This document shows, piece by piece, positions 9,603 to 40,610 of a stretch of DNA of 64,000 nt (its first letter is position 1; each line of letters starts with the position of its first letter). The notes beneath the pieces were generated by a model. It was given only the letters and a program-made list of their open reading frames with translations. It did not search any database and was not told where the DNA came from. The position numbers and the translations under genes are program-made. The stretch is taken from positions 8,952-72,951 of the forward strand of contig JAJDCA010000080.1 of NCBI GenBank assembly GCA_029261055.1, read 5' to 3'. The stretch is from Candidatus Omnitrophota bacterium (GTDB taxonomy: Bacteria; Omnitrophota; Gorgyraeia; Zapsychrales; Zapsychraceae).

Positions 9603-9642
9603 TTATTTTTTGACAGTATATATTTTATATTCATAACCTGAT

Positions 9643-14945: not shown

Positions 14946-15983
14946 TCAGGAGTTAATCTGCTGGCCTGCTTTTTTCCACGCATCGAAGCCGTCTATAAGA
15001 TGGCAAACACCGGACAAGCCCTTTTCCTTGGCAGTACGCACCGCAAGCGCTGAACGCTCACCAAAGGCGCAGTAAAAAAATATCCGTTTCGCACCTGAAA
15101 ATATTTCTTTGTGCATTGGGTTGTTACGGTCGATATAGGCCTCAAGGTGTGGATAAGGTACATGCACGGAGCCGGGAATAAATCCTTCTTTTTTTCGTTC
15201 CTTATCTTCACGTAGATCGACCCAAATGACACCCGGATTCTTGAGATATCCACTGGCTTGCTCGACTGTGAGCGCCTTGTCTGGCGTTAGGGCTTCGGTT
15301 TGACAATGTCCGATTGAGATGTTGGCTGGCACAGCCACGTCCATCAATTTCGGGTTGGGCAAAGTAAGGTTATTCATAAGTTCGACATATTGCTCGATGG
15401 ATCTCACTTGCAGGCGCGGATTCCGCAGTCGTTCCTCGCCGATTGTTGAGACGGTCTCGCCCTTGTAGTCGTGTGCGGGATAAACCAGCGTCGTATCTGG
15501 CATCCGCAGGAGTTTATTAAACAAAGAGTCATATTGTGCCCGCGGATCACCACTTTGGAAATCCGTGCGTCCCGTACCTCTAATCAATAATGTGTCCCCG
15601 GTGAATATGCAGCCAGGCAAATGGAAACTATAGGAGTCAATCGTATGGCCCGGAGTATAAAGCACATTCAAGCTGAGCCCATCAATGTCGATCGTATCTC
15701 CCTCTTTCACGCGCATGGAGACGACATCGACTGGGCTTTGTTCGCCCATGACGGTGATACAACGCGTCTTATCGCGCAGTTCTCCTAATCCTGTGATGTG
15801 ATCGGCATGAACATGGGTATCTGCCGCCTTAACCAGCTTTAATTCAAGCCGTTCCATTAAATTGAGGTAATTTTGTACATGCTCCAAAACCGGATCAATG
15901 ATAAGTGCCTCACCGCCCTTGCGGCTAGCCAGTATGTATGTGAATGTGCTCGACTCTTGATCGAATAGCTGCTTAAAAATCAT
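14946..15983 (-). CDS. Metallo-beta-lactamase-fold persulfide dioxygenase (ETHE1-like) fused to a C-terminal rhodanese domain (CstB/Blh-like)
   Basis: HVHADH metal-binding motif typical of the MBL fold and ETHE1. The C-terminal rhodanese has an active-site Cys loop (FYCAFGERS). Confidence 0.72.
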   Translation of the reverse strand: MIFKQLFDQESSTFTYILASRKGGEALIIDPVLEHVQNYLNLMERLELKLVKAADTHVHADHITGLGELRDKTRCITVMGEQSPVDVVSMRVKEGDTIDIDGLSLNVLYTPGHTIDSYSFHLPGCIFTGDTLLIRGTGRTDFQSGDPRAQYDSLFNKLLRMPDTTLVYPAHDYKGETVSTIGEERLRNPRLQVRSIEQYVELMNNLTLPNPKLMDVAVPANISIGHCQTEALTPDKALTVEQASGYLKNPGVIWVDLREDKERKKEGFIPGSVHVPYPHLEAYIDRNNPMHKEIFSGAKRIFFYCAFGERSALAVRTAKEKGLSGVCHLIDGFDAWKKAGQQINS

Positions 15984-18128: not shown

Positions 18129-18992
18129 TTACGCATTTTTTATATTTCGCATCCTATTGTATAATCCTGTTATACCTATTAAAATCATCACGAAACAAAG
18201 AATTTGTCCCATAGAAAAATTACCGAATACAAAGCCCATATGTTCATCTGGTTGTCGCACATATTCTATAAAGAACCTGACGCACCCATAACCTATAAAA
18301 TAAAGAAAAAACAAAAAACCGTCTGGATATTTCTTTTTGCGTATATTCCATAAAATTACAAATAAAATTATCCCTTCAAAAAAAGCTTCGTAGAGTTGTG
18401 ATGGATGCCTTAGTTGACTCAAGGAATCAGTTGGAAAATACATCCCCCAAGGCACGTCAGTAATTCGTCCATAAAGCTCACCGTTAAGAAAATTACCTAT
18501 TCGGCCAAGAGTATATCCTAACGGGATAGTTGGAATAAGTAGATCCGTGAAATTCCAAAAATTAATTTTCTTTTTAGAACAATATATTTTTGTTGCTAAA
18601 AATAAACCTATAACACCTCCGTGATAAGATAATCCAAGAATACCCACATACCGGACTCCATTAGTAAAATCGAATGGAAGAAATATTTCCAACGGGTGAA
18701 AAATAAAGTACCCTAAGTTGTAAAATAAAACATAGCCCAGCCTCCCGCCCAATATGACTCCTAAAATAGCCCATTGAAAATAATCTAATATTGTTTCTTT
18801 CGTATATGCGTATCGATCCCTTTTTATTCTGTATAAAACAAGACAGTAGACCGTAACAATTGCTGCCAAATACATCAACGAATAATAGCGTAATTGAAAC
18901 GAGCCAATTTCAAAAATATTGGGAGTAATATTCTCGGGTAGATGTTGCCAATAATTCATATATTGTCTTCCCATGTCTTTTGCTTTATGCAT
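18129..18992 (-). CDS. lgt: Prolipoprotein diacylglyceryl transferase
   Basis: Multi-TM protein with Lgt signatures (N-terminal F.IG.F..RYY.L.Y, the YHGG motif, GRIGNFLNGELYG). Confidence 0.8.
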   Translation of the reverse strand: MHKAKDMGRQYMNYWQHLPENITPNIFEIGSFQLRYYSLMYLAAIVTVYCLVLYRIKRDRYAYTKETILDYFQWAILGVILGGRLGYVLFYNLGYFIFHPLEIFLPFDFTNGVRYVGILGLSYHGGVIGLFLATKIYCSKKKINFWNFTDLLIPTIPLGYTLGRIGNFLNGELYGRITDVPWGMYFPTDSLSQLRHPSQLYEAFFEGIILFVILWNIRKKKYPDGFLFFLYFIGYGCVRFFIEYVRQPDEHMGFVFGNFSMGQILCFVMILIGITGLYNRMRNIKNA

Positions 18993-19471
18993 CCTATGAC
19001 CATGAAAAAAGCACCAATTGTAATAGCACTGTCAGCGATATTGAATATAGGCCATATTCTAAAATCAATAAAATCAATTACATACCCTAGGTAAATACGG
19101 TTAAGCAAATTGCTAATTGCACCTCCTAGTATTAGAGAAAATGATGTGACGTACAGCCGGTTTAGTTTGCCTTGATTGTTCCAATAATAGTAAATATTAA
19201 ACACCAGAAGAAGAATCGCTACAATCGGAATAATAATCCATACAAAACCGGCATCTTTAAACATTCCAAATGCAATCCCTGTGTTATGGCCAAGAGTAAA
19301 ATGAAACACCTTGGGTATAACGGGAATAGATTCTCCCAATGAAAGAACTTCCGAGAAAAAATTCTTTAAGAACTGATCAATAAAAACAACTAAAAATATC
19401 GTTATAAAAGTTATCAAAATATCAATATTGGATCGACTGTGCTCTTTTATATTCATAATCAAAGTATTCAT
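18956..19471 (-). CDS. lspA: Lipoprotein signal peptidase II
   Basis: LspA motifs NTG.AFG and FNIADSAITIGAFFMV. Four TM segments. Overlaps lgt by 37 nt. Confidence 0.85.
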   Translation of the reverse strand: MNTLIMNIKEHSRSNIDILITFITIFLVVFIDQFLKNFFSEVLSLGESIPVIPKVFHFTLGHNTGIAFGMFKDAGFVWIIIPIVAILLLVFNIYYYWNNQGKLNRLYVTSFSLILGGAISNLLNRIYLGYVIDFIDFRIWPIFNIADSAITIGAFFMVIGCIKQKTWEDNI

Positions 19472-19550: not shown

Positions 19551-19817
19551 TTAAGAAGAGTGAATCGGTGGGCGATGTGCCTTTTCGAGGATAGGGTCCT
19601 GATGATCAAAAAAGTAACAGAAGACCATCTTTGAATATGGTTTTGTAAATGATGAATGGGTTTGAATATCCGGCAAGGTAGCGTTATGACATGATAAACA
19701 CATAAAAATACAACCCTGTGCAGCATCCTTATCCATACCGTTATCAGAACAATATGCATATAAAGGTAGAGAAAACATAACAATAGATATTAGTATTATA
19801 ACTATCAACCGTTTCAT
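19551..19817 (-). CDS. Small secreted Cys-rich protein of the 'HRPPI-tail' family (copy C), heading the lspA-lgt-sigma operon
   Basis: Signal peptide, CIFMCLSC core and the C-terminal DPILEKAHRPPIHSS. The alternative overlapping frame 19523..19783 has no family support. Confidence 0.5.
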   Translation of the reverse strand: MKRLIVIILISIVMFSLPLYAYCSDNGMDKDAAQGCIFMCLSCHNATLPDIQTHSSFTKPYSKMVFCYFFDHQDPILEKAHRPPIHSS

Positions 19818-19894: not shown

Positions 19895-20098
19895 TTAACA
19901 ATAATTCTTTTCTTCCTGCCTTGGCAGGCATTTAACAGCACCGTAAGAACAAAAGACGCAACAGTCCCCTTCTTTTGGCTTTAATTTTACTCCACAATTA
20001 GAACAGTTGTAAAAAAACTGGCAAGCAGATGTTGGTATTGTTTCTTCTTTTTCAAAACCACATTCAGGACACTTAATTATTGATTTTAATTTAGCCAT
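19895..20098 (-). CDS. Small Cys-rich protein with double zinc-ribbon-like motifs ('GDCC' mini-protein), copy 1
   Basis: CPECG...CQFFYNCSNCG...KPKEGDCCVFCSYG. 80% identical to 22613..22822. Confidence 0.55.
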   Translation of the reverse strand: MAKLKSIIKCPECGFEKEETIPTSACQFFYNCSNCGVKLKPKEGDCCVFCSYGAVKCLPRQEEKNYC

Positions 20099-20133
20099 TT
20101 GATAGCTTTAGAATGAGTTATTTGTAACAGATA

Positions 20134-21264
20134 TCAAGCCCTATCCTGTTCATACTTAAAAGCATATTTGATCGAAAGCTCTGCTTTTTCTAATTCCTTA
20201 CCGAGATAAGCGGCGTGACTCAACAGAGAAACCCACTTATTATCAACTATCTGCATATATAAACTCTTTGCATTATCTCCCTCTATCGTATGTTGTAGTT
20301 TATTATCATAAGAATAATGCTCGACAATAATCGTTCTTTTTTTATTCTGAGGATAAAGAACAAAATATCCCGCTTTATCCATTTTAACTGGACTGTTTTC
20401 ATTAGCATTTGTTATCGGTTCATCTGATTTACGATTACCTTCATTTACATCATGGCAACCACATTTTGATGACGCACTCCCGTTTGAAACCTCTTTAATT
20501 TTTTCAAGTATTTCATTTACATTTTCACAACCAATCATATCAACAACTTCTATTTGGCTTCTAAATAAATCAATGTCTTTCTTGGTTATGTTTCTTAAAA
20601 CCGGCTTCTTTCCTTTTGCACCAACTATTTTCATGTTTTCATCCACACCATTTTTCCATAAAGATAGAATTGTATTACCAGTTAAATGCCCCTTTGCTTC
20701 CTTCCCTGCTAAAATTAAAGTTTTTATTGTCGGATTTGACACGATATTCTTAATAACTTTATCGATACCTATATTCTCCGTTTCAGTCTTTCCGACTATA
20801 CAAAGCTCACGTGGTCTATTCTTAGCTAATTCTTCGACTAATTCAACGCTCGCCAAAGTGGTCACTGCCACAGGACAAGATGTATCAGTGCCATCACAAA
20901 ACGATGAATAATCAGCCGTAATAACAGGCCATTCTTCTTCACGCACTTCAAAACTGCAACTTAAGTCCTTATTTTCAGTTAACTCAGGAAAGGTTTCATT
21001 TAATACATTCATGACAACTGCAGGATAACAATGCTCACAACCCAGACAAGCATATTTGATTTCTTTCATTTTGTTGAGCCACGATTTACTTTTTTCCTTC
21101 AAAAGGCTAAGCTCTTTAGTCTGGTCACCCGAAGAAATAGTCTCTATAAATTCTAAAGTCTCTTTCATACATCCGCATTTTTGACATTTGGGCAAACTAA
21201 TGCCCTCATGTAATTCAGATTCTATTTTTTTAATCGATTCGTCATTTGACATAATTATGGCCAA
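20134..21264 (-). CDS. Cys-cluster protein with an MtrA-like (tetrahydromethanopterin S-methyltransferase subunit A-like) corrinoid-binding-type domain; function unknown
   Basis: N-terminal CQKCGC...CLGCEHC. The central region is reminiscent of an MtrA fold (IVGKTETENIGIDKV...LILAGKEAKGHLTGN). This is a tentative family call from memory, not a search. Confidence 0.4.
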   Translation of the reverse strand: MAIIMSNDESIKKIESELHEGISLPKCQKCGCMKETLEFIETISSGDQTKELSLLKEKSKSWLNKMKEIKYACLGCEHCYPAVVMNVLNETFPELTENKDLSCSFEVREEEWPVITADYSSFCDGTDTSCPVAVTTLASVELVEELAKNRPRELCIVGKTETENIGIDKVIKNIVSNPTIKTLILAGKEAKGHLTGNTILSLWKNGVDENMKIVGAKGKKPVLRNITKKDIDLFRSQIEVVDMIGCENVNEILEKIKEVSNGSASSKCGCHDVNEGNRKSDEPITNANENSPVKMDKAGYFVLYPQNKKRTIIVEHYSYDNKLQHTIEGDNAKSLYMQIVDNKWVSLLSHAAYLGKELEKAELSIKYAFKYEQDRA

Positions 21265-21740
21265 TTACCTTTTGTAAGATTGCATTTCTTAGGATTTTTT
21301 GCTTTCTTTTTAATCCAAAAATAACCCACTGTAACTGAAATCAATGTAATAACAAACACTAATGGTTTGGTAAAGCCTAATACAGATGAGCCAAAAAATC
21401 CTAAATAAACTACCAGCATAGGAGATCCACAACAGCCAATAAGGAAACATCCCAAGAAATAAAGTAGTCCTGTTAGCGTAATACCCCCTATAACTCCTTC
21501 AACACACTGCTTATTTAAAGCCATGAACTGAAAGAAAGCATACACCGTAAAACTAATGGCTAATGCATATGACAGTCCGATAAAGAAATCTAACTGTTGA
21601 AAATACATTAAAACAAAATTGGCATCCTGCATTTGAGCCCAATTTTTATATATCTGGGTGTTCTTATTAACTGTATAAAATAGATGTAGAAAAAAAACGA
21701 ATACGAGCGAGAAAACAATGTAGAAGTGTTCTTTTTTCAC
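21255..21740 (-). CDS. Integral membrane protein with an intramembrane vicinal Cys pair (MerT-like?)
   Basis: Four predicted TM segments. GCFLIGCCGSPMLV resembles the MerT LCCVGP motif. Confidence 0.45.
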   Translation of the reverse strand: MKKEHFYIVFSLVFVFFLHLFYTVNKNTQIYKNWAQMQDANFVLMYFQQLDFFIGLSYALAISFTVYAFFQFMALNKQCVEGVIGGITLTGLLYFLGCFLIGCCGSPMLVVYLGFFGSSVLGFTKPLVFVITLISVTVGYFWIKKKAKNPKKCNLTKGNWP

Positions 21741-22117
21741 TTTACTTCCACCTTTTGCGATTCAAAGATATAACCTTCCCCCTCAATCTTCTTTAGCTCG
21801 CCAAAAACAGTAACTTCACTATCTTTTTGCGGTATTTCACCACTACATTTAACTGGTAAGATAAGACATCCATCATCACACCCTAAGCCAAACATCGACT
21901 TTGCACTGTCAACCATAGCTACTTTTCCTTCCACAGTAATGTAGCCTGTAAACTGATCCGGATTCATCAACACATTGTCTAGATTTGTAATAATTGTAGG
22001 GTTAATTGCATCACTACTTGACTTACCAACCTCATTAGTCTTTGTTTTGTCTAATTTTCCCATTCCAACAGAAGCACATATTAAAATTGCCGTTAAAATT
22101 AAAATGTTATTTTTCAT
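21737..22117 (-). CDS. Periplasmic protein / lipoprotein, hypothetical
   Basis: Signal peptide with a Cys near the cleavage site (ICASVG). Small beta-rich domain. Confidence 0.45.
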   Translation of the reverse strand: MKNNILILTAILICASVGMGKLDKTKTNEVGKSSSDAINPTIITNLDNVLMNPDQFTGYITVEGKVAMVDSAKSMFGLGCDDGCLILPVKCSGEIPQKDSEVTVFGELKKIEGEGYIFESQKVEVK

Positions 22118-22129
22118 ATTATCTCCAAT

Positions 22130-22504
22130 TTAGACAAATTTCTTATTTTGAATACCCAAATGACATTTTCCATTTTTTCTTAATTCTAGACGTATTTTGA
22201 ATCGTTTCAAATCTTCCGCATATATATTTCCATTAAGTTTTAAGATTGATTGACAAAGAGAGGAGATAAATCCAGGTTGAAAGTTACAAGCAGAATAATT
22301 AACCCATCGTCCCTCTTTTCTGGATTGTATAAGACCAGCATTAATAAGAATATCCTGATGCTTTGTCAGATTATATTGTGGGACTTCTAGGGAATCAACC
22401 AACTCACACCCACAAAGTTCCTTCTTTGTCTTAAGTAAAAGGTACATCACTCGCAATCTTGTTGGTTCACTTATCGCCTTTAGTATTTTTGTCTCATTCA
22501 TCAT
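22130..22504 (-). CDS. arsR: ArsR/SmtB family metal(loid)-responsive transcriptional repressor
   Basis: HTH (ISEPTRLRVMYLL) and an ELCGCEL metal-binding motif equivalent to ELCVCDL of ArsR. Confidence 0.85.
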   Translation of the reverse strand: MMNETKILKAISEPTRLRVMYLLLKTKKELCGCELVDSLEVPQYNLTKHQDILINAGLIQSRKEGRWVNYSACNFQPGFISSLCQSILKLNGNIYAEDLKRFKIRLELRKNGKCHLGIQNKKFV

Positions 22505-22612
22505 TTTTCCTCGCTTTCATACTTGCATTACTATGCAAGTATATATCCAAAAATACACATTGTCAATAATTTTAAGGTTACAGCATCATTTAAACCACTA
22601 TTAAAAAATTAT

Positions 22613-22822
22613 TTAGAAACAATTTTTTTCTTCCTGCTTTGGCGGGCATTTGACCGTGCCAAATGAACAAAATACACAACAATCCCCTTCTTTTGGCTTT
22701 AATCTTGCTCCGCAATTTGTGCAATTATAAAAAAATTGGCAAGAATTCGTCGGCATGGTTTTTTCTTTTTTAAAACCACATTTAGGACATGTAAGGAGAG
22801 AACGCATTAACATTATTTGCAC
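22613..22822 (-). CDS. Small Cys-rich 'GDCC' mini-protein, copy 2
   Basis: CPKCG...CQFFYNCTNCG...KPKEGDCCVFCSFG. Paralog of 19895..20098. Confidence 0.55.
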   Translation of the reverse strand: MQIMLMRSLLTCPKCGFKKEKTMPTNSCQFFYNCTNCGARLKPKEGDCCVFCSFGTVKCPPKQEEKNCF

Positions 22823-23193
22823 CTGCAGGAAATTTTTAGCCTAAAATTGGCGAGAGAAATACCAATCAAAAGGAATGCCCCAGCGTACATCAACAGTTGG
22901 CTGAACCAAATATATCTACCCGCATAGATACCAAAGGCTCCCATCATGCCAACCACTAATATCCACCATTGTTTATGTAAACGGACGGCCCAAGCAAGGG
23001 AAGCGAGAGATATTAAAAGGAGCACAACAAGAAATGGCTGTAGAAATGCAACGCTGACCGCAAATCCCAATCCAATAGAAGCCAGAAATGCCCCTAGAGC
23101 TGGAATACAGAGTGGACAGACAATAGCTACTAGAGCAGAAAGCACTGAGGTTATCTGCGCTACCCATTTTGGTTTTTTTATACTTTTTGCCAT
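22813..23193 (-). CDS. Small membrane protein with a CPLC motif at the first TM and a C-terminal CRC (MerT/MerF-like transporter?)
   Basis: Three or four TM helices. VCPLCIPALGAF sits at the membrane interface. C-terminal KISCRCK. Confidence 0.45.
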   Translation of the reverse strand: MAKSIKKPKWVAQITSVLSALVAIVCPLCIPALGAFLASIGLGFAVSVAFLQPFLVVLLLISLASLAWAVRLHKQWWILVVGMMGAFGIYAGRYIWFSQLLMYAGAFLLIGISLANFRLKISCRCK

Positions 23194-23465
23194 TATGCCT
23201 GTCCGATTCCCGCGGCCATTAATGCTTCCCTATTAGGATTGCCCATTTGGCAACATTCCACAATTTTTCCATCAACAACAACCGTGGACACTGAATTAAT
23301 ACCGTATGCCTTTGACTTCTTAATGCACTCTTTCGTTTTACAGGGATTTGATAGATCGTGCACGGTAACGTCACAATTCGGACACGCCAGTTCCTTTACA
23401 AGCTGCACGGTCTCATCGCAGAGATAGCAGCCGCTTGTAAACACCTCAACATTTCTTTTTGTCAT
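23193..23465 (-). CDS. Small thioredoxin/glutaredoxin-fold protein
   Basis: About 90 aa with CYLC near the N-terminus and additional CxxC pairs. Size and spacing fit an MTH895-like thioredoxin fold. Confidence 0.45.
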   Translation of the reverse strand: MTKRNVEVFTSGCYLCDETVQLVKELACPNCDVTVHDLSNPCKTKECIKKSKAYGINSVSTVVVDGKIVECCQMGNPNREALMAAGIGQA

Positions 23466-23893
23466 TTTCTTTTCCTCCCTTCTGTTTCAATCTGCGGGCA
23501 TACCGAATATTTCATCTTCTTAGCCTGTTTCGGTTTTACCCATTTGTTTAATTTTTCTTCCAATCGTTTTTTAGCTGTGTTAAGTTCCACAATTTTATCT
23601 TCATATTTTTTTATTTTCTTTGTAAATAAATTACGAACCAAATTACAACACGGTTTAAGTCCATCTTCCGCACAATAAATAATTTCTTTAATTTCCGAAA
23701 GTTTTAATCCAAGTTCTTTTGCCTTTTTAATAAACAATAACTTATCAACATCTTTTTGACTATAAAACCGATAATCAGATCTCGTTCTTTTTGGTTTATC
23801 TAATATGCCGAATTCCTCGTAGTAGCGGATCGTTTTTGTGGAAACACCCGTCTCTTCACTTAATTTTCCAATTAATATTTTTTTGTTTTGCAT
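23462..23893 (-). CDS. MerR family transcriptional regulator (metal-responsive type)
   Basis: N-terminal MerR HTH (IGKLSEETGVSTKTIRYYEEFGIL). Coiled-coil dimerisation helix. Cys residues sit in the metal-binding loop region (CAEDGLKPCC). Confidence 0.85.
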   Translation of the reverse strand: MQNKKILIGKLSEETGVSTKTIRYYEEFGILDKPKRTRSDYRFYSQKDVDKLLFIKKAKELGLKLSEIKEIIYCAEDGLKPCCNLVRNLFTKKIKKYEDKIVELNTAKKRLEEKLNKWVKPKQAKKMKYSVCPQIETEGRKRK

Positions 23894-24002
23894 ATTTTAA
23901 CCTCAAATATAGTATACACCTTCCAGTATACTAGAAGGTCAAGAGGTATTAATTAAAACTTTTTAAAGAATTTAATTCAGTGGGTAGGAGAACGAGGGCA
24001 GA

Positions 24003-24737
24003 TTAATTAACCGTTCTTATATTTGTTTCAATATTCCGGACAGCGACAGGGCGGCCTGGCACTAATGTAATATCTGGGTTTTCGCTAAGTCGTCTTATCC
24101 AGTTTTTAGAACCTTTCGGTTTCCAATAAAGAATATATTGACCATAGGGGACATTTTTAAATGTATAAAGGCCAAACTCATCTGTAATCGCTTTGAAAGA
24201 CTCTTCTTCTTCTTTTTCCTCTGAACCAGAAAACATGTTTAGCATTCTATCTTTAACCGAATCAGCAACTTTAAGAACCCGTATTTCACAATTTGAAAGC
24301 GGCTCTCCTTTCATCAATATTTTTCCTTGAATGACACGATCCTGCGACAACATTTCTTGAATGGAATCAGCAAATGGTTGTGACGTTATTGTGGATACTG
24401 TTTGTTGGGCAGGATGATTTTGTCCCAAATTTTTTAGTGATTCAGATCCACTGACTTGAACACTTTGTTTAGGCAGCCGCAAGGTAATGGTTTCACCATC
24501 ATCAATCCAAATCACTTTTTGCAAAGCAGAAGACTGCTTTGAAGGAGGTTTTTCACCAGCTTCAATCCGTTTAATCTCATTTTTTGGGAACCTAATAATT
24601 ATTGAATCAGGATATTCTTCAAGGACTTCTCCCTGGTTTCCTGATTTTTTATTCTGAAGATAAATGGTATCTGCATTAGCCGTTATCCCCATCAAAAATA
24701 AAAAATAAAATATTCCTGCAACAATGTTAATTTTCAT
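24003..24737 (-). CDS. Secreted protein with a carboxypeptidase-regulatory-like (transthyretin-like) beta-sandwich domain
   Basis: Signal peptide. C-terminal G.I..G.P....I.V.....DEFGLYTFKNVPYGQYIL pattern typical of CarboxypepD_reg-like domains. Confidence 0.5.
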   Translation of the reverse strand: MKINIVAGIFYFLFLMGITANADTIYLQNKKSGNQGEVLEEYPDSIIIRFPKNEIKRIEAGEKPPSKQSSALQKVIWIDDGETITLRLPKQSVQVSGSESLKNLGQNHPAQQTVSTITSQPFADSIQEMLSQDRVIQGKILMKGEPLSNCEIRVLKVADSVKDRMLNMFSGSEEKEEEESFKAITDEFGLYTFKNVPYGQYILYWKPKGSKNWIRRLSENPDITLVPGRPVAVRNIETNIRTVN

Positions 24738-24773
24738 AATTTTAAAATATGTTATTATTAATATTTAATTGTA

Positions 24774-25385
24774 TTATTTTTTGATGGTGAAGTCAATTTT
24801 AGATGTATCGCTTGAAGAAACAGTCACCTCTGACTGGGAAGGTCGAAGTTTCTTATGCCAAGTCTTTAAAGTATATGTACCTTCAGGAACATTCTCAATG
24901 GTATAATCTCCATTCTCATCTGTGACAGCAAAATAAGGTGTCGGTAAAACGACAATCCACCCTTCCATTTCCGGATGCAAATTACAAAGAATAACGGCCT
25001 CTCCCAGCTTACTAAAAGTATATGCTCTTTTCTCTCCTTGCCCCCATGAGCCTAAGTTAAACTCGTCTGCTGCTTCATCAGGGGAAAACACATTATGAGT
25101 AAATGCATCGCTGTTTAGGAAATCCACTGTTGTTCCTTTCAGAATTGGAAGAACATGGGGAACAAATTCTTTAGCTAATTGATTACTTAAGACAGGTTCA
25201 ACGGAAGGGTCAAACTCTTTACCTTCAATTGTATCGACATAAACAACTGCATCTTGATTACCTTTTACTCCTTTGGCTTCGAGGTGTCCTGTAATTGTCC
25301 CTGCCCAAACAGACGAAGCCAGACAAAAAACGCCAACATTAATTAATATTAAAGTTGTTTTGAAACTACATTTTCTATATTTCAT
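24774..25385 (-). CDS. Secreted protein with a carboxypeptidase-regulatory-like domain
   Basis: Signal peptide. GTITGHL...VTDENGDYTIENVPEGTYTLK pattern. Confidence 0.5.
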   Translation of the reverse strand: MKYRKCSFKTTLILINVGVFCLASSVWAGTITGHLEAKGVKGNQDAVVYVDTIEGKEFDPSVEPVLSNQLAKEFVPHVLPILKGTTVDFLNSDAFTHNVFSPDEAADEFNLGSWGQGEKRAYTFSKLGEAVILCNLHPEMEGWIVVLPTPYFAVTDENGDYTIENVPEGTYTLKTWHKKLRPSQSEVTVSSSDTSKIDFTIKK

Positions 25386-27005: not shown

Positions 27006-28289
27006 TTATTCACTTGTTTCTTCTTGTTCCCATGGATAAAGAGTCAGTAAATAGGCAATGATACTATCAATATCCTTATCGCTTAATCCCTTTGCCCAAC
27101 TCGGCATATGCAAAAGCGGTTCAGGGCCCTCTGGATCAGCTTTCCCTGCCGGGCTCCCCCTTTTTATGACATTGCGAATGGCACGGTACTGGGCTAAAAC
27201 CCTTCCTCTTTTGGGCACATCTAATTTGGGAGACATTTTGGTTATATCCACGCCATTTTTTAATAACTCTGAAACTTTATTCGCATTTTCCGGTTCATCA
27301 AGAAACATTCTTTCCGCTAAAATATTAAGTTCCGGGACTGTTCTCTTTATATAATTGATATTTTTGACACCCCCTTTTGCATCTGTTCCATGACAGGCAA
27401 CGCAATATTTGCGATAAAGCGGCTCTCCATGAACTGTTTCAGGTTGTTTTCCTTCTTGAATTTCTGCAAGATAAGAAATCGGAACCTCTTTTTTTGACAA
27501 ACCTTTCAGAAATACAGTCAGGGCTAGGATTTCTTCTTCTGAGAAATTGAAGTCTGGCATAGCTGTGATTTCCGGTTGGGCCCCTGGTTGTTTTACAGAT
27601 TCATAAATATACGCAATATTAGCATTGTGGTGAAACCTATCGAGCAATTCTTCTGAAACAGGATGCTTAAGATGAATGTTTGCATCTGAAATATTCGTTA
27701 ACTCCGGCGCAAGATTTCCACCTTTTCCTCTAAGTTCATGACATCCTAAACATCCATTACGAAGGAATAAATCTTTTCCTTTTTTCACTAAAGTGAGTTC
27801 CGGGAGAGATTCTACGTTGTGACAACGAACACAGTTGGATTCAAGAAAAGGAGGATACATCAAAGGTTTCTCCCAGAAGGCCACAGACACACCATGTGCC
27901 TCTTTTTTAGTCACTGCGCGCCCCTGACCATCATGACATACCGTACAACCGACTTTTTCTAATTCATGATCCCCCAAGATATCGCCAGGATGAACTTTAA
28001 TGGGTTGTGGAACATTAACCATCCTGGGGTCTTCTATCCCAACATGACAGATAACGCACCTATCAACACGGTTTAATTCAGGCACAACAATTTGACGCAT
28101 TTTTATTTCATAATTATCAGCTAATTTTTGTTCCTTCTTATCAATCGCCTTCTTTTTAAGTTCTTTTTTATAAAGTTTTTGGAATGGTTGCCATTCATTG
28201 TTTATATTTTCACGATATGCTTCAGCTAACAAAACAGCAATAAGTATAAGACTAGAAATTAAAATTATTTTCTCTGTTTTCATGTGCAC
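27006..28289 (-). CDS. Membrane-anchored pentaheme cytochrome c
   Basis: Five CXXCH motifs (CVICH, CTVCH, CVRCH, CLGCH, CVACH). N-terminal TM anchor. Confidence 0.8.
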   Translation of the reverse strand: MHMKTEKIILISSLILIAVLLAEAYRENINNEWQPFQKLYKKELKKKAIDKKEQKLADNYEIKMRQIVVPELNRVDRCVICHVGIEDPRMVNVPQPIKVHPGDILGDHELEKVGCTVCHDGQGRAVTKKEAHGVSVAFWEKPLMYPPFLESNCVRCHNVESLPELTLVKKGKDLFLRNGCLGCHELRGKGGNLAPELTNISDANIHLKHPVSEELLDRFHHNANIAYIYESVKQPGAQPEITAMPDFNFSEEEILALTVFLKGLSKKEVPISYLAEIQEGKQPETVHGEPLYRKYCVACHGTDAKGGVKNINYIKRTVPELNILAERMFLDEPENANKVSELLKNGVDITKMSPKLDVPKRGRVLAQYRAIRNVIKRGSPAGKADPEGPEPLLHMPSWAKGLSDKDIDSIIAYLLTLYPWEQEETSE

Positions 28290-28317
28290 TTTCTAAATAT
28301 ATTACCTGTTATCTAAT

Positions 28318-29868
28318 TTAATGAACAGGCCATTGACTTTTTAACCAGTAAAAATCCCAATTAGGTCCTCGATGATAAGTGGCGAAATAAGTTAAAATGA
28401 CAAAAGCGACCAAGAAACAAGTAAAAAGAGCAATGGCTGCCATACGTGTAGATTTATATTTTGCCATACAATAAAATGACCAAAAGACAAAAAATGTCAC
28501 TAAAACCGTTCCGGGATTAATAAAGGTAATAACAAGCTGTGGTATGTTAGGAACCCAATTCCTTAGCCAACCAAAACTCACTGTGAAAATGAGCATCCCG
28601 ATAACAGTCGCAGCGGAAAAACCAAAAGAAATCCATGCCACACGCCTACTTTCTTTATTTCGAAGCCATCGACCAATTTCTTGTTTTTCTTTGTCTAAAT
28701 AAGGTATCAACGCTAATCCCAACAGAGCGAGTGTGGGGATTCCAACGCCACCCATAAAGGCAGAATATGAAACCAATTCCTGAAGTCCTAAAAAATACCA
28801 AGGTGCTTTTGCGGGATTCTCGGGGACAACAGGATTAGCCATCTCTTTTAACGGGGCATCAACAAAATAGGCATAAACACAAATAAAAGTAAAAGTTATC
28901 ATAAAAAGAGCAGCTATTCTAATCATCATATGCGGCCAACTAGAAACTGTTTGCTCGGGGCCTCTTTCAACAGCATTGGATTCACCTTTAACAATACACA
29001 TAAGCCCGTACGTCTTCTCAGGTGCATAGTTAAATGTTTTATCGGATAAAGGATCTTTAGGTATTCCTTCGAGTTCTTTCTCTTTAATGTTATCCGGCCT
29101 GGCCAAACCACCATCTTTACGGACGCGCCAAATATGAACAGCCAATACCATAACCAAAACAATCGGTAATATAATACAATGCAGCCAATAGAAACGAATC
29201 AAAGCGTCCTCACCAATTTCTTTAGATCCCAATAAAAGAATTTTCATCAAACTACCCGGATCAAAATATTCAGTAATATTTAAGGCATCGGTTAGTTCAT
29301 TAAACGAAGCAGCAATATTTGTTGCAATCGTAACGGCCCAATAGGCAAGTTGATCCCACGGAAGAAGGTATCCTGTGAAACTCATCATCAGTGTAAGTGC
29401 CAAAAGACCAATCCCTAAAACCCAGTTGAATTGACGTGTTCGTTTATAAGCTGCCGTATAAAAAACACGTGCCATATGCAGAAAAACGCTGATAATCATC
29501 ACATTAGTGGCCCAGCGATGAACATTACGAATAAACCGTCCACCAGGGACAATAAATTGAATATCTTTTATCGAATCATAAGCCAATTCAACAGAAGGTT
29601 TATAATAAATCATTAAAAGAACGCCTGTCACGATAAGGATGATAAAGGAAGATGCTGCAATCACTCCCAAACCAAAAGTAAATTTAGGCTTTAATGAGTA
29701 GCGGTGTATTCGTGTGCTGAAAATATGCAAAAATGAATTGCCAAAAATAATTTGACTACGTGCCCGATCAGAAGTCGGTTTGTCATGCCGTATAAAGGAC
29801 TTTTGAAAGGTTTGTGGAAGTTCTTTAAGATTTTCAAAAAACTCTTTTAAACTTTTTGGTAAAGGCAT
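28318..29868 (-). CDS. Cytochrome b of a Rieske/cytochrome b (bc-type) complex; fused cyt b6 plus subunit-IV-like length
   Basis: Heme-ligand helices (RNVHRWATNVMIISVFLHMARVFYTAAY). 516 aa with 8 or more TM segments. Confidence 0.85.
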   Translation of the reverse strand: MPLPKSLKEFFENLKELPQTFQKSFIRHDKPTSDRARSQIIFGNSFLHIFSTRIHRYSLKPKFTFGLGVIAASSFIILIVTGVLLMIYYKPSVELAYDSIKDIQFIVPGGRFIRNVHRWATNVMIISVFLHMARVFYTAAYKRTRQFNWVLGIGLLALTLMMSFTGYLLPWDQLAYWAVTIATNIAASFNELTDALNITEYFDPGSLMKILLLGSKEIGEDALIRFYWLHCIILPIVLVMVLAVHIWRVRKDGGLARPDNIKEKELEGIPKDPLSDKTFNYAPEKTYGLMCIVKGESNAVERGPEQTVSSWPHMMIRIAALFMITFTFICVYAYFVDAPLKEMANPVVPENPAKAPWYFLGLQELVSYSAFMGGVGIPTLALLGLALIPYLDKEKQEIGRWLRNKESRRVAWISFGFSAATVIGMLIFTVSFGWLRNWVPNIPQLVITFINPGTVLVTFFVFWSFYCMAKYKSTRMAAIALFTCFLVAFVILTYFATYHRGPNWDFYWLKSQWPVH

Positions 29869-29895
29869 CGCAATGAATTCCTTTTATTATTTCTC

Positions 29896-30396
29896 TTACA
29901 CAACATATTTTGTACCAGCAGGAACTTTTTTCCCCGCATTAACAACTAATTTTCCGCTCGGGAGTTGACTGACTTCTAACCAGCTTAAGCCACGAGGAGC
30001 TGGCCCAGCAACAACGTCACCTCTTTCATTAAATTTAGAACCATGGCAAGGACACTGGTACCCTTTACTTGTTTTTGACACAATACATCCTAAATGGGTA
30101 CATATAAGTGAAACAGCATAAATGCCATCACCATCTCTAACAATACGCACTTTTTTGTCCTCGATGATTTTTTTGGTCCCAACAGGCATGTCCTCCGGTT
30201 TCCCGATTTTGAAAATATTGGAAACATCGGGTAATAATGCCGGTTTAGGAAATTTTAACAAACCAATCATTGTTAAAGTCCACGCTGTAATAGATGCACC
30301 AATGGTAGATAATTTCAAAAATTTTCTTCGGCTAATCTTATTTTCTGAATCAATTTGGTAATCACGTTTATGGCCTTTTTGATCCGTTGAACTCAT
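29896..30396 (-). CDS. Rieske [2Fe-2S] iron-sulfur protein
   Basis: CTHLGC...CPCHGS boxes. Twin-arginine-like RRKFLK signal followed by a TM anchor. Confidence 0.85.
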   Translation of the reverse strand: MSSTDQKGHKRDYQIDSENKISRRKFLKLSTIGASITAWTLTMIGLLKFPKPALLPDVSNIFKIGKPEDMPVGTKKIIEDKKVRIVRDGDGIYAVSLICTHLGCIVSKTSKGYQCPCHGSKFNERGDVVAGPAPRGLSWLEVSQLPSGKLVVNAGKKVPAGTKYVV

Positions 30397-32255
30397 CTTA
30401 AAATCTCCTTAAAAGTAAATCGCTCCATAGTTATGGCGTCGACGGGACAACGGATCGCGCACAAAGCACACCGAATACACTTTTCTTCATCTTTAATAAT
30501 AGCCGTCAATTTATCTGTTTGTTTTCTCTTTTTCATAAGGTCAAACAATTTAAAAATTGATTTGTCTCCTTGCAGCTTAGCTACGGGGACTAGCTTTAAA
30601 CACAATTCAGGACAGACATCAACACATCCGCCACAAAGGATACATTTATTTCCATCAAAAATAGTATTAACCCCGCAGTCCAGACAACGAGCCCCCTCTA
30701 TTTGGGCCTGCCCAGAGGTAAATCCTTTTTCAATAACAATTTTATGATTAAACATTCTATCTTTAACATCAACTGTTTCAAATACCTGGCGTCGAATTTT
30801 CTCATACCCCATCTCCCGGGAATAATCTTCAATTGGCGTGTGCACTTTTTCTATTTTTGTCTCTATTTTTATACCGCTTACTTTATGATAAATCGACCGT
30901 GCAACTTTTTTACCGCTCGCGATTGCATCAATCATCAAACGGGGGCCATAAGCCAGATCACCGGCCAGAAAAACGCCATCGGCACTTGTTGAAAAAGTTT
31001 CTGGATCACAAACAATATTACCCCGCTCATTTATTTCTAGCCCATCTTTTTTAGGATCAATGAAGGAAACATCCGAACTCTGTCCGACTGCAAACAGGAC
31101 CGTGTCCGCTTCCAGGGTAAGAGTATCGGAAGGGTCATATTGAGGATTAAACCGATTATTTTCATCAAAAACCGAAGTTACTTTGTAAAACAAAACACCT
31201 TTAACTCTTCCCTGCTCTGTTAAAATTTTTTGTGGGCCGTAACCATTGTGGCGCATAACTCCTTCTTCTTCTCCCTCTAAAATTTCGATCTCATCAGCCA
31301 GCATTTCGTTTTCCGATTCAAGACAAACCAAAGAAATATGTATACCTTCCCGCTCATGCAAAGCGGTGTTGACCACATCCACTTGTTGCTGCCGAAGGGC
31401 TGATCGGGCAATGTCATAAGCGACATTCCCGCCGCCAATGACAACAACTTTAGTTCCGATGTCACGAGGTAGATCAAGGGACACGTCTCTCAAGAATTCA
31501 ACGCCGCCTAAAACTCCGGAAGCATCAGCCCCGGGAATTGGTAGAGACCTCGACTTTTTGCAGCCAACAGCAATCACAACAGCATCATGGCGCCTTCGCA
31601 GCTCCTCAAAAGTTACATCTTTACCGACAGTACAACTTGTTATGATTTTAACGCCCAATGATTTAATAACTCCAATTTCCGCATCGATTAATTCTCGCGG
31701 AAGTCGATATGCGGGGATTCCTAAATAAAGCATTCCTGCCGGAATAGGCTCCATTTCGTATATCGTTACTGAAAAACCCATTAAAGCAAGATCATGCGCC
31801 CCAGCAAGGCCTGCCGGTCCTGAACCAATAATTCCGACACTTTTTTCATGCATTTTTTTGAATTTTCCAGATTCCACATTGATTAAGAAAGCTCCCAAAT
31901 CTTCAATATCAATACACTCTCTATTCTCTAAATTTGTACGAATTTTTTTGATAACGTCTAATGGTGTTTTTAGTGCTTCTGAATTTTCTACCGCAGACCG
32001 TTTTAGACCTCTAATAGAAACACTTTTGTCAATACTACCGCGCCGACAGGCAGCTTCACAAGGAGCGCCGCAAACACGGCCACAAATAGAAGCTAAAGGA
32101 TTAGGGGCACGTGCGATCAAATAGGCCTGCTCAAAATTCCCTTCTGCAATAGCCCGGACATATCCGCGTGCATCCGTATGTACAGGGCAGGCATACTGGC
32201 ACTTAATTTGCTTTTTCCAATAATTGGAATTCGGGATTTCGACTTTCAGCTTCAT
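30393..32255 (-). CDS. GltD-like FAD/NAD(P)H-dependent oxidoreductase Fe-S flavoprotein with C-terminal 2x[4Fe-4S] ferredoxin domain
   Basis: N-terminal Fe-S motif C..CP.......C..C....C. Two Rossmann GxGxxG motifs (GIIGSGPAGLAGA, VVIGGGNVAYD). C-terminal CILCGGCVDVCP and CIRCALCAIRCP. Confidence 0.8.
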   Translation of the reverse strand: MKLKVEIPNSNYWKKQIKCQYACPVHTDARGYVRAIAEGNFEQAYLIARAPNPLASICGRVCGAPCEAACRRGSIDKSVSIRGLKRSAVENSEALKTPLDVIKKIRTNLENRECIDIEDLGAFLINVESGKFKKMHEKSVGIIGSGPAGLAGAHDLALMGFSVTIYEMEPIPAGMLYLGIPAYRLPRELIDAEIGVIKSLGVKIITSCTVGKDVTFEELRRRHDAVVIAVGCKKSRSLPIPGADASGVLGGVEFLRDVSLDLPRDIGTKVVVIGGGNVAYDIARSALRQQQVDVVNTALHEREGIHISLVCLESENEMLADEIEILEGEEEGVMRHNGYGPQKILTEQGRVKGVLFYKVTSVFDENNRFNPQYDPSDTLTLEADTVLFAVGQSSDVSFIDPKKDGLEINERGNIVCDPETFSTSADGVFLAGDLAYGPRLMIDAIASGKKVARSIYHKVSGIKIETKIEKVHTPIEDYSREMGYEKIRRQVFETVDVKDRMFNHKIVIEKGFTSGQAQIEGARCLDCGVNTIFDGNKCILCGGCVDVCPELCLKLVPVAKLQGDKSIFKLFDLMKKRKQTDKLTAIIKDEEKCIRCALCAIRCPVDAITMERFTFKEILR

Positions 32256-32257
32256 AG

Positions 32258-33340
32258 TTAAACGGGAATGGAAGATACTTTGTTTATTGAATCAAATTTA
32301 TAGTTATATATTTTTCTTTCTTTCATTTTTCTTAATTGATCATAAAACTCAGATATTTTCTGGGCAATAATCTGTTCTACAAGAATACTGGAATCTTTTC
32401 GTTTCTCCATATTGTCTTCAACAACTTTATCTAAATCATCAATAGAAAACAAAAGAACGTTTTCTATTTTTGCCACATTAGGGTCGATATTGCGTGGCAT
32501 AGAAATATCCAATAACAATAATTTCTTATTCCTTCGTTGTGCCATAACTTTTGTTACTAAATTCCTTTCAACGATTATATGGGGAGCATTGACAGAGCAG
32601 ATGCATACGTCTACTTTTTTTAAAATTTGCTCAATTTCACTAAAGGGAACAATTTTTCCTCCGATTTGTTCCGCTAACTCTGCAGCATGAGCCGTTGTCC
32701 TGTTCATAATGTATAAATCTTTGACGTTTTTGCTTTTTAACTGCCGACCTGTCAGGGTGCTCATCTTTCCTGCCCCGATTATTAAAACAGACTTATTGCT
32801 AAGGGTTTCTATCATGTTTTCGGCCATTGTGACGGCGGCCCAACTCACTGAAGAGCCGCCTGCTCCAATAGACGTTTCATTTTGTGCCTTTTTGCCGCAC
32901 TGAATCACTAAATTAGATAAAATATTAAATAAAGAAGATAACATCCCCTTTTTTCGTGACAAGTTTACGGCAGCTTTTATTTGACCTAATATTTGTTTTT
33001 CTCCTAAAACAAGAGAATCCAATCCGGTGGCAACACGGAAAAAATGATCGACGGCTACTTGATCGGTCAGTGAATAAAAATGTTTTTTTAAAGGCGAAGT
33101 TATATCAAGATGTTTGATTTGAGCTAACAGTCCAATCAATGAGTCAGGCGTAAAGTTTGAAATCGTATTTACATATATCTCGGTACGGTTACAGGTCGAG
33201 ACAACAATTGCTTCAATGATACTTGGATATGATTTAAGTTCACTAAGTAAAAGTTCCTGTTCCAAGTCCCTCAAATAAAATTTTTCCCTGACTTCTATGG
33301 GGGCGGTTTTATGATTAATGCCAACAACCTGTATTTTCAT
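32258..33340 (-). CDS. hemA: Glutamyl-tRNA reductase
   Basis: N-terminal MKIQVVGINHKTAPIEVREKF, catalytic-Cys region TCNRTEIY, NADPH-binding GAGKMS. Confidence 0.9.
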   Translation of the reverse strand: MKIQVVGINHKTAPIEVREKFYLRDLEQELLLSELKSYPSIIEAIVVSTCNRTEIYVNTISNFTPDSLIGLLAQIKHLDITSPLKKHFYSLTDQVAVDHFFRVATGLDSLVLGEKQILGQIKAAVNLSRKKGMLSSLFNILSNLVIQCGKKAQNETSIGAGGSSVSWAAVTMAENMIETLSNKSVLIIGAGKMSTLTGRQLKSKNVKDLYIMNRTTAHAAELAEQIGGKIVPFSEIEQILKKVDVCICSVNAPHIIVERNLVTKVMAQRRNKKLLLLDISMPRNIDPNVAKIENVLLFSIDDLDKVVEDNMEKRKDSSILVEQIIAQKISEFYDQLRKMKERKIYNYKFDSINKVSSIPV

Positions 33341-40597: not shown

Positions 40598-40610
40598 GAC
40601 AGATCTCCTG

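Follow-up and report, generated by a model that had tools for sequence, protein, structure and literature searches.

The island and the systems closest to it

To our knowledge, hgcAB is the only genetic system known for microbial mercury methylation. In the current view, HgcA has a Cys ligand and transfers the methyl group to Hg(II) as a carbanion. In classical mer operons, a periplasmic Cys protein hands the metal to a CC pair in the membrane and from there to the Cys domain of a cytosolic enzyme. Another related system is the MtrA-H methyl-tetrahydromethanopterin:coenzyme M methyltransferase of methanogens, in which MtrA holds a cobamide in a Rossmann-like fold. We have analyzed a Cys-rich gene island located at positions 19895-23893 of a 64,000-nucleotide stretch of contig JAJDCA010000080.1 from a Candidatus Omnitrophota bacterium (assembly GCA_029261055.1); this whole stretch is called the window. 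The island encodes an MtrA-like corrinoid-type protein together with Cys-rich membrane and exported proteins and two regulators. We class it as a metal-resistance operon whose enzyme is novel and whose accessory proteins include two new families, hybrid-like of mer and HgcAB and a member of neither. Full-text searches of the literature returned nothing on this system and no account of the MtrA-like family in a metal context.

The island consists of nine co-directional genes, all on the minus strand, between lspA (18956-19471) and CarboxypepD_reg-like genes (24003-25385). This layout had been noted in a preliminary description of the DNA, together with the observation that nearly all products carry paired Cys residues. 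Both points were borne out by the listing of open reading frames (ORFs), as each of the nine products contains at least one C-x(0-4)-C pair. Cys accounts for 4.9% of residues across the nine products, whereas the remaining 53 long ORFs of the window contain 1.27% (Fisher p = 4e-17, odds ratio 4.0). The ORF coordinates show that neighbouring genes overlap or stand a few nucleotides apart. The nine genes had been taken for a single unit; rather, overlaps and gaps split them into two tight units, separated by a 108-nt gap, which correspond to two operons with separate MerR-type and ArsR-type control regions. Unit 1 comprises merR, trx, merC and a GDCCVxC gene (copy b), unit 2 comprises arsR, sec126, memb161, the MtrA-like gene and GDCCVxC copy a. 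No intrinsic terminator was found. The genes are, in the direction of transcription:

23462-23893, minus strand: MerR-family metal-sensing regulator, 143 aa (matches to PF13411, PF00376 and PF09278)
23193-23465, minus strand: thioredoxin (Trx)-fold protein, 90 aa, with CYLC, CPNC and CC motifs and a 4-nt overlap with merR
22813-23193, minus strand: MerC-family inner-membrane transporter, 126 aa (PF03203, 52.5 bits, cut-off 27.6)
22613-22822, minus strand: GDCCVxC protein, copy b, 66-69 aa (NF041374, 103.4 bits, cut-off 40)
22130-22504, minus strand: ArsR/SmtB repressor, 124 aa, with the motif ELCGCEL (NF033788, 69.2 bits, cut-off 55)
21737-22117, minus strand: sec126, an exported or anchored protein of 126 aa with a conserved G-C-x-D-x-C dithiol
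21255-21740, minus strand: memb161, a membrane protein of 161 aa with four transmembrane (TM) helices and a basic C-terminal tail
20134-21264, minus strand: MtrA-like protein, 372-376 aa (PF04208, 2e-41, 141.9 bits, cut-off 25; PF14251, PterinBD-DUF4346, 1e-21)
19895-20098, minus strand: GDCCVxC protein, copy a, 67 aa (NF041374, 96.7 bits), last gene of the ArsR operon, 35 nt past the stop of the MtrA-like gene

The MtrA-like/DUF4346 protein, the membrane protein memb161 with its CCxxP motif, the exported dithiol protein sec126 and GDCCVxC are called the module in the following. HgcAB resembles this module in several respects. A cytoplasmic cobamide domain has a membrane domain as fusion or partner, the metal is presumably held by additional Cys pairs, and there is a possible Fe-S or redox element. 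HgcAB is also co-transcribed with an ArsR-like regulator (bioRxiv 10.1101/2022.10.17.512643), in parallel to the module, and both are distributed patchily in anaerobic bacteria and archaea in a way that looks like horizontal transfer. However, the two are not homologous. The cobamide domain of the module has the MtrA fold (PF04208), whereas that of HgcA is of the corrinoid iron-sulfur protein (CFeSP)/CdhD type; the cobalt ligand is a His (H193) in the module and the cap-helix Cys in HgcA. The membrane partner of the module has four TM helices with a CCxxP motif and is fused N-terminally in homologues, not C-terminally. Furthermore, the module adds the exported dithiol protein and GDCCVxC, and the island has no HgcB-like 2x[4Fe-4S] ferredoxin with a C-terminal CC; none of the nine products matched a ferredoxin family in Pfam or NCBIfam. 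The module is also found in the aerobes Chryseobacterium, Planococcus and Paraburkholderia. The route had been proposed to be distinct from HgcAB, and this holds in that the protein is unrelated to HgcA: it has neither a CFeSP domain nor the cap-helix motif N(V/I)WCA(A/G)GK, which was not found in any of the six frames of the window.

With a classical mer operon the island shares a MerC protein (PF03203) in the place of the Hg(II) importer and the proposed order from periplasmic Cys protein through membrane CC pair to the Cys domain of the enzyme, in which the CCxxP motif of memb161 stands as in MerT. The MerR-family regulator, with a candidate promoter carrying a dyad in a long spacer, may be a further parallel. 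In contrast to mer, the island has no detected MerA, MerP (HMA) or MerT, and the corrinoid protein occupies the enzyme slot. Its periplasmic and membrane parts come from new families, and the enzyme operon is under a second, ArsR-type regulator. Mercuric reductase, arsenate reductase and ArsB had all been described as missing. The statement stands for mercuric reductase: phmmer detected no homologue of MerA, nor of ACR3 or ArsP, in the whole window; neither ArsC nor ArsB was searched for. The MerA, MerTP and HMA proteins of a Chryseobacterium locus (L094, see below), used as phmmer queries, also matched nothing in the window; MerB was not searched for.

Systems of the ars/ArsM type resemble the island by an ArsR with the motif ELCxC and by clustered Cys residues which could bind As(III) in an S3 site, and some homologues have genes for ACR3, ArsP_1, ArsC-like proteins of the phosphatase type or S-adenosylmethionine (SAM) methyltransferases as neighbours. 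They differ in that the island lacks a SAM methyltransferase, ACR3 and ArsP; among its nine products, no match to an ars structural-gene family was obtained with Pfam or NCBIfam. The methyl carrier of the island would be a cobamide, not SAM, and arsenic systems are not known to import their substrate by a Cys relay.

The MtrA-like protein, its partners and their regulators

The MtrA-like protein probably starts at the ATG at 21252. It consists of a Cys-rich helical N-domain (residues 1-105), an MtrA fold (~108-262) and a DUF4346 domain of ~80-85 aa (~295-376). A region resembling the corrinoid-binding MtrA fold had been recognized in the preliminary description, and this assignment was confirmed at several levels. 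In addition to the Pfam match, a PDB profile search with 30 homologues matched 5LAA and 5L8X at 1e-38 (5LAA 1.2e-38), and an AlphaFold model (predicted local distance difference test score, pLDDT, 72) was aligned by Foldseek to 5LAA, the MtrA-cobalamin complex, with a TM-score of 0.80 and 40% identity. The residues around the cobalt are conserved as well. In MtrA, His84 is the cobalt ligand and Glu54 its hydrogen-bond partner, and bacterial homologues mostly retain the His (Wagner et al., PMC4915002). In our family, H193 (in G-H) and E163 (in T-E-N) are invariant in the 30 homologues and align with His84 and Glu54 of 5LAA; the meander motif G-x-x-P-x-x-x-N is also invariant. Fold and conserved ligand residues predict that the protein binds a cobamide via this His.

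The MtrA-like protein thus shares with MtrA of MtrA-H (5LAA and 5L8X being cytoplasmic homologues) the Rossmann-like cobamide fold, about 40% identity and the equivalents of His84 and Glu54. It differs from methanogen MtrA by the absence of a C-terminal TM anchor and of mtrB-H neighbours and by the addition of a Cys/Sec N-domain and DUF4346. The model shows no TM helix, the C-terminus being formed by DUF4346, and no Mtr subunit was found among the family-searched neighbours, which cover ~12.5-32 kb of the window. The match to TIGR01111 reached 134.9 bits at a cut-off of 249. Because it has no TM anchor and no mtr neighbours, misses the TIGR01111 cut-off and contains two added domains, we do not consider the protein a subunit of Mtr. 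Moreover, the sampled hosts include many non-methanogenic bacteria and archaea, and the context is metal resistance instead of methanogenesis. A further family model is NF002128, a 390-aa 'MtrA' model with the same three-domain layout, which was matched end to end (residues 9-376 against model positions 11-370) with 395.6 bits at an equivalog cut-off of 568. Judged by these scores, the protein shares the NF002128 architecture but is a more distant branch. DUF4346 is common to archaeal dihydropteroate-synthase-like proteins (TIGR00284 match). An ORF on the plus strand within the MtrA-like gene (20573-20911, 112 aa) was rejected as probably spurious; its apparent conservation across loci is a shadow of the coding strand.

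Ten Cys residues are invariant in the alignment of the 30 homologues. Seven of them belong to the N-domain (C27-x-x-C30-x-C32, C73-x-x-C76-x-x-C79 and C103), the others are Cys123, 130 and 155, the last of which is located inside the MtrA fold. The N-domain has no relative in Pfam or PDB; its C-x-x-C-x-x-C-x-P sequence resembles a ferredoxin cluster site at a non-significant E of ~0.4. In five genomes of Desulfobacterota, TGA stands in frame at the C73 position of the alignment, with an intact reading frame downstream (L048:8205, L061:3829, L063:2450, L070:8205 and L071:1621); the same was found in 14 metagenome loci. Over all loci fetched, TGA occupies this codon in 19 of 115 occurrences of the motif, TAA or TAG in none of the 115. 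The motif of the TGA variants reads U-L-G-C-x-x-C. A hairpin is predicted ~10 nt downstream of the TGA, with -12.9 kcal/mol as compared to -10.6 kcal/mol in GC-matched Cys versions and without covariation. Apparently, the TGA at C73 probably encodes selenocysteine, which would be a new selenoprotein position. The variant suggests that C73 is redox-active or binds a soft metal and is not purely structural; C73 may also be a cluster ligand.

The membrane protein memb161 matched no Pfam or NCBIfam model, MerT (PF02411) included. Its invariant positions are C98 and the sequence G-C103-C104-G-S-P-M. The AlphaFold2 model (pLDDT 76.5, predicted TM-score 0.67) contains helices at 3-33, 51-76, 81-100 and 118-148 and places the CC pair in the loop after TM3; it had no fold match in PDB at E<=0.001. 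A UniRef label of one homologue, 'Sulphur transport domain-containing' (YeeE/YedE-like), was considered and rejected, there being no fold match to solved transporters. The CCxxP motif reads CCGSP in memb161 and CCITP (within SLCCITP) in the MerTP protein of L094. By this analogy memb161 may work like MerT without being a member of that family, and we propose that it is an importer. Two membrane proteins of the island had been called MerT-like. This is correct for memb161 only as far as the CCxxP motif is concerned, since no MerT match was obtained, and the second protein, with the CPLC motif, is a MerC and not a MerT or MerF.

The exported protein sec126 also had no match in Pfam or NCBIfam. 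Its family is small, with ~100 clusters at 50% identity among 1.84 billion representatives, and members accompany an MtrA-like gene at 12-14 of the 80 genome loci and, in metagenomes, at 12 of 80. Two homologues gave weak sub-threshold matches to CcmE (OB-fold). We propose, by analogy with MerP, that sec126 is a periplasmic acceptor of the metal(loid). Together, sec126 and memb161 are two new protein families for which there is no Pfam model.

The ArsR of unit 2 carries the ELCGCEL motif, as had been noted; in the alignment it takes the form ELC31xC33E with both C31 and C33 invariant. A C-terminal extension has the sequence G-K-C116-x-x-G-I-Q here and G-(K/R)-C-x-x-G-I-Q in the subfamily. Contigs labelled Bacteroidota, Acidobacteriota, Nitrospira and Elusimicrobia encode members of this dedicated three-Cys ArsR subfamily directly upstream of or beside their MtrA-like genes. 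The ArsRs that accompany mer operons in Chryseobacterium and Hymenobacter are of a different kind.

In unit 1, the best NCBIfam model for the MerR-family regulator is MerR TIGR02051 with 90 bits, below its cut-off of 150, and CueR, ZntR and CadR follow closely. Its Cys residues (C74, C82-C83 and C132) form a non-canonical pattern. The Trx-fold protein gave weak matches below cut-off to Thioredoxin_3 (2e-4) and to the MJ0307-family thioredoxin model (9e-6). MerC has CPLC in TM1 and CRC at its C-terminus; the NCBIfam MerC equivalogs scored 36-38 bits and their cut-offs were missed. GDCCVxC copy b is translationally coupled to merC, the database gene call being 66 aa from the ATG at 22813. It contains two zinc-ribbon-type CxxC knuckles, followed by GDCCVFCS...C. 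By its sequence content, unit 1 is a mer-type cassette without MerA.

Putative control regions were found upstream of both operons:

23911-23942, minus strand: candidate MerR-type promoter, -35 TTGACC (23942-23937), 20-nt spacer, -10 TATACT (23916-23911)
22521-22566, minus strand: candidate promoter/operator of the ArsR operon, TTGACA-17-TATACT (22566-22538), 11/12 in the consensus scan

Promoters of the MerR family are typically recognized by a spacer of 19-20 nt that contains a dyad. As read from the sequence, the dyad ACCTTC-N10-GAAGGT (23939-23918) lies inside the 20-nt spacer of the first candidate, which is located 18 nt upstream of the merR ATG; the consensus scan gives another pairing at this site instead (TTAATA-16-TATACT, 23952-23925). 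At the ArsR operon, the perfect palindrome ACTTGCAT-AGTA-ATGCAAGT (22540-22521), also read from the sequence, overlaps the -10 element of the candidate promoter. The dedicated ArsR subfamily, the flanking MerR/CadR-type regulators and these candidate operators would fit a metal-controlled module, as we propose.

Homologues, natural fusions and genomic surroundings

Relatives of the MtrA-like gene were found in at least 362 places in the genome collection and at least 388 in the metagenome collection, among up to 600 pattern matches examined in each. Counts of genomic context refer to the best 80 genome loci, drawn from many phyla of bacteria and archaea. A membrane partner, as a separate gene or as a fusion, is present at ~17 of these loci and an ArsR gene is adjacent at ~20, as compared to ~2% estimated for a random 16-kb window. 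Other neighbours are CPC-type P1B ATPases (10/80), CzcA (8/80), DUF302 (5/80), ACR3 (4/80) and ArsP_1 (4/80); several loci contain SAM methyltransferases, DsbD_TM or DGC proteins, and some homologues have AhpD-like, TehB-like methyltransferase or ArsC-like genes of the low-molecular-weight phosphatase type nearby. ArsP_1-family permeases adjoin the MtrA-like gene in L081, L028 and L034.

Four kinds of natural fusion link the parts. The memb161 and MtrA-like domains are joined, with the membrane part N-terminal, in proteins of ~535 aa. In P0260 and L114, memb161 carries GDCCVxC at its C-terminus. P0374 combines an MtrA-like protein, a TM helix and sec126, an architecture which places the sec126 domain across the membrane from the enzyme. 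At L169:7750-9510, the MtrA-like protein is followed by a C-terminal CDF-like (cation efflux) membrane domain. A functional link between the corrinoid protein and the thiol-rich proteins of the membrane and the exterior, as had been suggested, is thus supported by natural fusions and by operons that recur in many phyla.

A syntenic relative of the island is found in L081, a JGI contig, where the order from MerR to the MtrA-like gene is the same over a collinear 3.8 kb at 75% nucleotide identity and the flanks are different. The L081 counterparts are 81% (MerR) and 87% (Trx-fold protein) identical, and copy b is 82% identical to the sole GDCCVxC copy of L081. The second copy is replaced there by a 60-aa Lys-rich protein with two SSCC motifs (9085-9267), followed by an ArsP_1-family permease (9258-10217).

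Several loci combine the module with mer components. In Chryseobacterium GCA_001507325.1 (L094), the order is ArsR, sec124, MtrA-like, memb170, and 1.3 kb downstream an operon of ArsR, MerTP, an HMA protein and MerA follows; this MerA scored 515 bits on TIGR02053 (cut-off 454), and MerTP scored 293 (cut-off 180). L095, a Chryseobacterium-type contig, has a merC gene within the MtrA-like operon and an adjoining integrase. In L108, a MerT-HMA-thioredoxin fusion lies upstream of sec126 and a fused memb::MtrA-like gene; a protein of 82 aa related to the Trx-fold protein also adjoins the module there. L167 contains a MerP-like HMA protein, GDCC and MtrA-like, in this order. Divergent regulators of the MerR or CadR/PbrR type were found in L107 and in Paraburkholderia sp. 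PGU19 (L179). On plasmid p2 of PGU19, the MtrA-like gene is followed by that of an AhpD-like CxxC protein (L179:6340-6801), whose domain is linked in NCBIfam to ArsM/AhpD fusion selenoproteins. Geobacter pelophilus (L096) has an MtrA-like gene. Planococcus kocurii ATCC 43650 carries a 458-aa MtrA-like/DUF4346 protein (L178:464-1840), with an adjoining ISL3 transposase, on the 13.5-kb mobilizable plasmid NZ_CP013660.2; in this copy, A-C-G-C repeats form a metallothionein-like insert that separates the Cys-rich N-domain from the MtrA fold.

The GDCC proteins are members of a named but uncharacterised NCBIfam family, NF041374, 'GDCCVxC domain-containing (seleno)protein', and both copies cover model positions 1-57 of 58. 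Their identity had been put at 80%; it is 71% as protein and 81% over 191 nt. We assign copy a to the module because memb161::GDCCVxC fusions adjoin MtrA-like genes (L097, L114) and because of the gene order in L167. GDCCVxC genes are present on 352 plasmids. At five of eight plasmid loci inspected, the gene follows a regulator and MerT/MerP/MerTP without MerA, or CzcA, and the other three have no such neighbour; the expectation that GDCC proteins are tied to metal loci elsewhere was thereby borne out. The MerA-less cassette was found on plasmids of Aeromonas, Methylophaga, Sphingomonas and Hymenobacter, and sequence matches to GDCC at 60.3% identity occur on plasmids of Klebsiella, Pseudomonas and others. 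This plasmid cassette (a regulator, MerT/MerP or MerTP, GDCCVxC) shares the layout of unit 1, namely regulator, Hg-type importer and terminal GDCCVxC. In the island, however, the importer is MerC and not MerT/MerP, a Trx-fold CxxC protein is added, and the cassette is paired with a corrinoid operon bearing its own second GDCCVxC copy. One further GDCC homologue originates from a Ca. Scalinduaceae metagenome-assembled genome.

The genes of the window all lie on one strand, and metal-related genes are frequent:

40163-42887, 58168-58560, 5315-8419, 51607-54720 and 60719-63976, minus strand: metal-efflux genes (P1B ATPase with N-terminal YHS and HMBD, DUF6488, DUF302 and three resistance-nodulation-division (RND) pumps of the AcrB/CzcA type)

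A 651-aa phosphoenolpyruvate-utilising enzyme (Enzyme I/PpsA-like; 44106-46061, minus strand) has a C-terminal YHS metal-binding domain at residues 601-638, an unusual fusion. A protein with metallo-beta-lactamase fold and rhodanese domain, resembling persulfide dioxygenase, is encoded at 14946-15983 (minus strand) in the only GC spike of the window (0.49 versus ~0.35), possibly the trace of a recent acquisition. A gene between lspA and the island (19551-19817, minus strand) encodes an 88-aa secreted protein that has a CLSCH motif of the haem-binding CxxCH type and no Pfam match. Upstream of the island, at 27006-33340 (minus strand), a cytochrome b (516 aa), a multihaem cytochrome c (427 aa) and an FAD/Fe-S oxidoreductase (620 aa) are encoded.

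Proposed function and alternative explanations

Our preferred reading, which we put forward tentatively, is that the island forms a two-operon system for a thiophilic metal(loid), most probably mercury, in which a Cys relay leads to a cobamide and a methyl group is transferred to the metal(loid). Mercury is the likeliest substrate for the version in the window because MerR, MerC and GDCC flank the module. The MerR-type activator would switch on the importer MerC and small cytosolic Cys-rich acceptors. Outside the cytoplasm, sec126 would capture the metal(loid) and pass it to the CC pair of the 4-TM protein memb161, whose cytoplasmic Cys tail would deliver it either to GDCCVxC or to the Cys/Sec N-domain of the corrinoid protein. 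The thiolate-bound substrate would then be acted on by the cobamide that the MtrA fold holds through its His, most likely by methyl transfer to the metal(loid), which would thereby become a methylated species, volatile or able to cross membranes. Cellular locations, direction of transport, identity of the substrate and the methyl-transfer reaction are those we infer. A wider claim, which we regard as rather doubtful, is that the module as a family constitutes a second corrinoid system, unrelated to HgcAB and widespread in bacteria and archaea including aerobes, which makes or breaks bonds between carbon and mercury, perhaps also between carbon and other soft metal(loid)s.

Several observations weigh against methyl transfer to mercury. 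The cobamide of MtrA-type proteins, in its His-on state, normally shuttles between Co(I) and CH3-Co(III) and gives CH3+ to a nucleophile, a chemistry which suits thiols or As(III) better than Hg(II). The island encodes no methyl-donor protein of the MtrH or MeTr type, DUF4346 comprises only ~85 aa and has no demonstrated function, and no Rfam element, cobalamin riboswitch included, was found in the window or in five related loci. The ferredoxin-like resemblance of the N-domain implies that some of its Cys residues may be ligands of Fe-S and not of the substrate. Within 8 kb of the gene, none of the 80 genome loci has a MerA, MerT or MerP, and the metal context is mixed (P1B ATPase, CzcA, ACR3 and ArsP), with one locus having a CadR/PbrR-type regulator; mercury as the sole context of the family was rejected on these grounds. 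Finally, ~21 loci labelled Nitrospirota, Thermodesulfovibrionia or Deferribacteres consist of a histidine kinase, MtrA-like, parA and parB without metal genes, which hints at a physiological role apart from detoxification.

The corrinoid enzyme might also work in the opposite direction, as a MerB-independent demethylase for methylmercury or methylarsenicals that passes the methyl group to the cobamide and on to a pterin or thiol and leaves the inorganic metal to MerA, to sequestration by GDCCVxC or to efflux. We consider this unlikely. In L094 the module adjoins a full MerTP-MerP-MerA operon devoid of merB, which is the position of MerB in broad-spectrum mer operons, and NCBIfam names MerC an 'organomercurial transporter'. 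Characterised ArsP proteins export methylarsenite, and ArsP_1 permeases stand beside the gene in the three loci named above; the occurrence of DUF4346 in dihydropteroate-synthase-like proteins hints at a link to pterins. The genes of mer-independent 'oxidative' methylmercury demethylation are also still unknown (PMC12130583). However, transfer of a methyl group from CH3Hg+ to a cobamide opposes the known chemistry. It is methylcobalamin that methylates Hg(II). Furthermore, neither the window nor L081 has a MerA for the Hg(II) that would be released.

Methylation of a low-molecular-weight thiol, HS-, HSe- or homocysteine, induced by metal(loid) stress and with the Cys proteins trafficking the substrate or Se/S, appears quite unlikely. 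It would remain close to the ancestral Mtr reaction, a methyl transfer from methyl-pterin to a thiol, and a cluster of three or four Cys residues might bind Zn and so activate the thiol, as the Zn-thiolate sites of MetH and MtaA do. Sec variants occur in both the MtrA-like and the GDCCVxC family, and the neighbours include AhpD-like proteins, DsbD_TM, TehB-like methyltransferases and DUF302. The 'sulphur transport' label of the memb161 homologue in UniRef points in the same direction but is structurally unsupported, as memb161 shows no fold likeness to solved transporters, and the repeated linkage to MerC, MerTP, MerA, HMA proteins and P1B ATPases would be left unexplained.

A further explanation, distinctly improbable in our view, makes the protein a MerA-independent reductase of mercury or another metal(loid), fed by the Cys relay, with Co(I) of the cobamide as a low-potential two-electron reductant. 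The enzyme sits where MerA stands, after MerP/MerT-like proteins, the island has importers (MerC, memb161) and no MerA, the ferredoxin-like CxxCxxC-P of the Cys/Sec N-domain could supply electrons, and reductive dehalogenases are precedents for cobamide enzymes acting as reductases. Yet the MtrA-fold proteins characterised so far are all methyl carriers, L094 with its MerA would have no need of a second reductase, and DUF4346 would have no explanation.

A chance juxtaposition of a housekeeping C1/corrinoid protein with unrelated mer/ars-type genes is very improbable, for although the window is full of metal-efflux genes (three RND pumps, P1B ATPase, DUF302) and about a quarter of the homologues stand in a core-genome parAB context without metal genes, it is already contradicted by the four kinds of fusion, by genes which overlap or lie a few nucleotides apart, by the recurrence of the order from MerR to MtrA-like in L081 with other flanks, and by the co-varying dedicated ArsR subfamily across phyla, with ArsR adjacent at ~20 of 80 loci where ~2% was expected.

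The chemistry is directly testable because cultured strains carry the module, namely Chryseobacterium GCA_001507325.1, Geobacter pelophilus, Planococcus kocurii ATCC 43650 (on a plasmid) and Paraburkholderia sp. PGU19. If the module is a second metal-carbon system, it could explain the production of methylmercury and dimethylmercury, or mer-independent demethylation, in places where hgcAB or merB do not fit the rates. If it acts catalytically on metals, surveys of methylmercury that use hgcAB, merA and merB alone miss a marker gene. Should the chemistry be different, the island still provides two new families, a probable new selenoprotein position and a functional context for plasmid-borne GDCCVxC.

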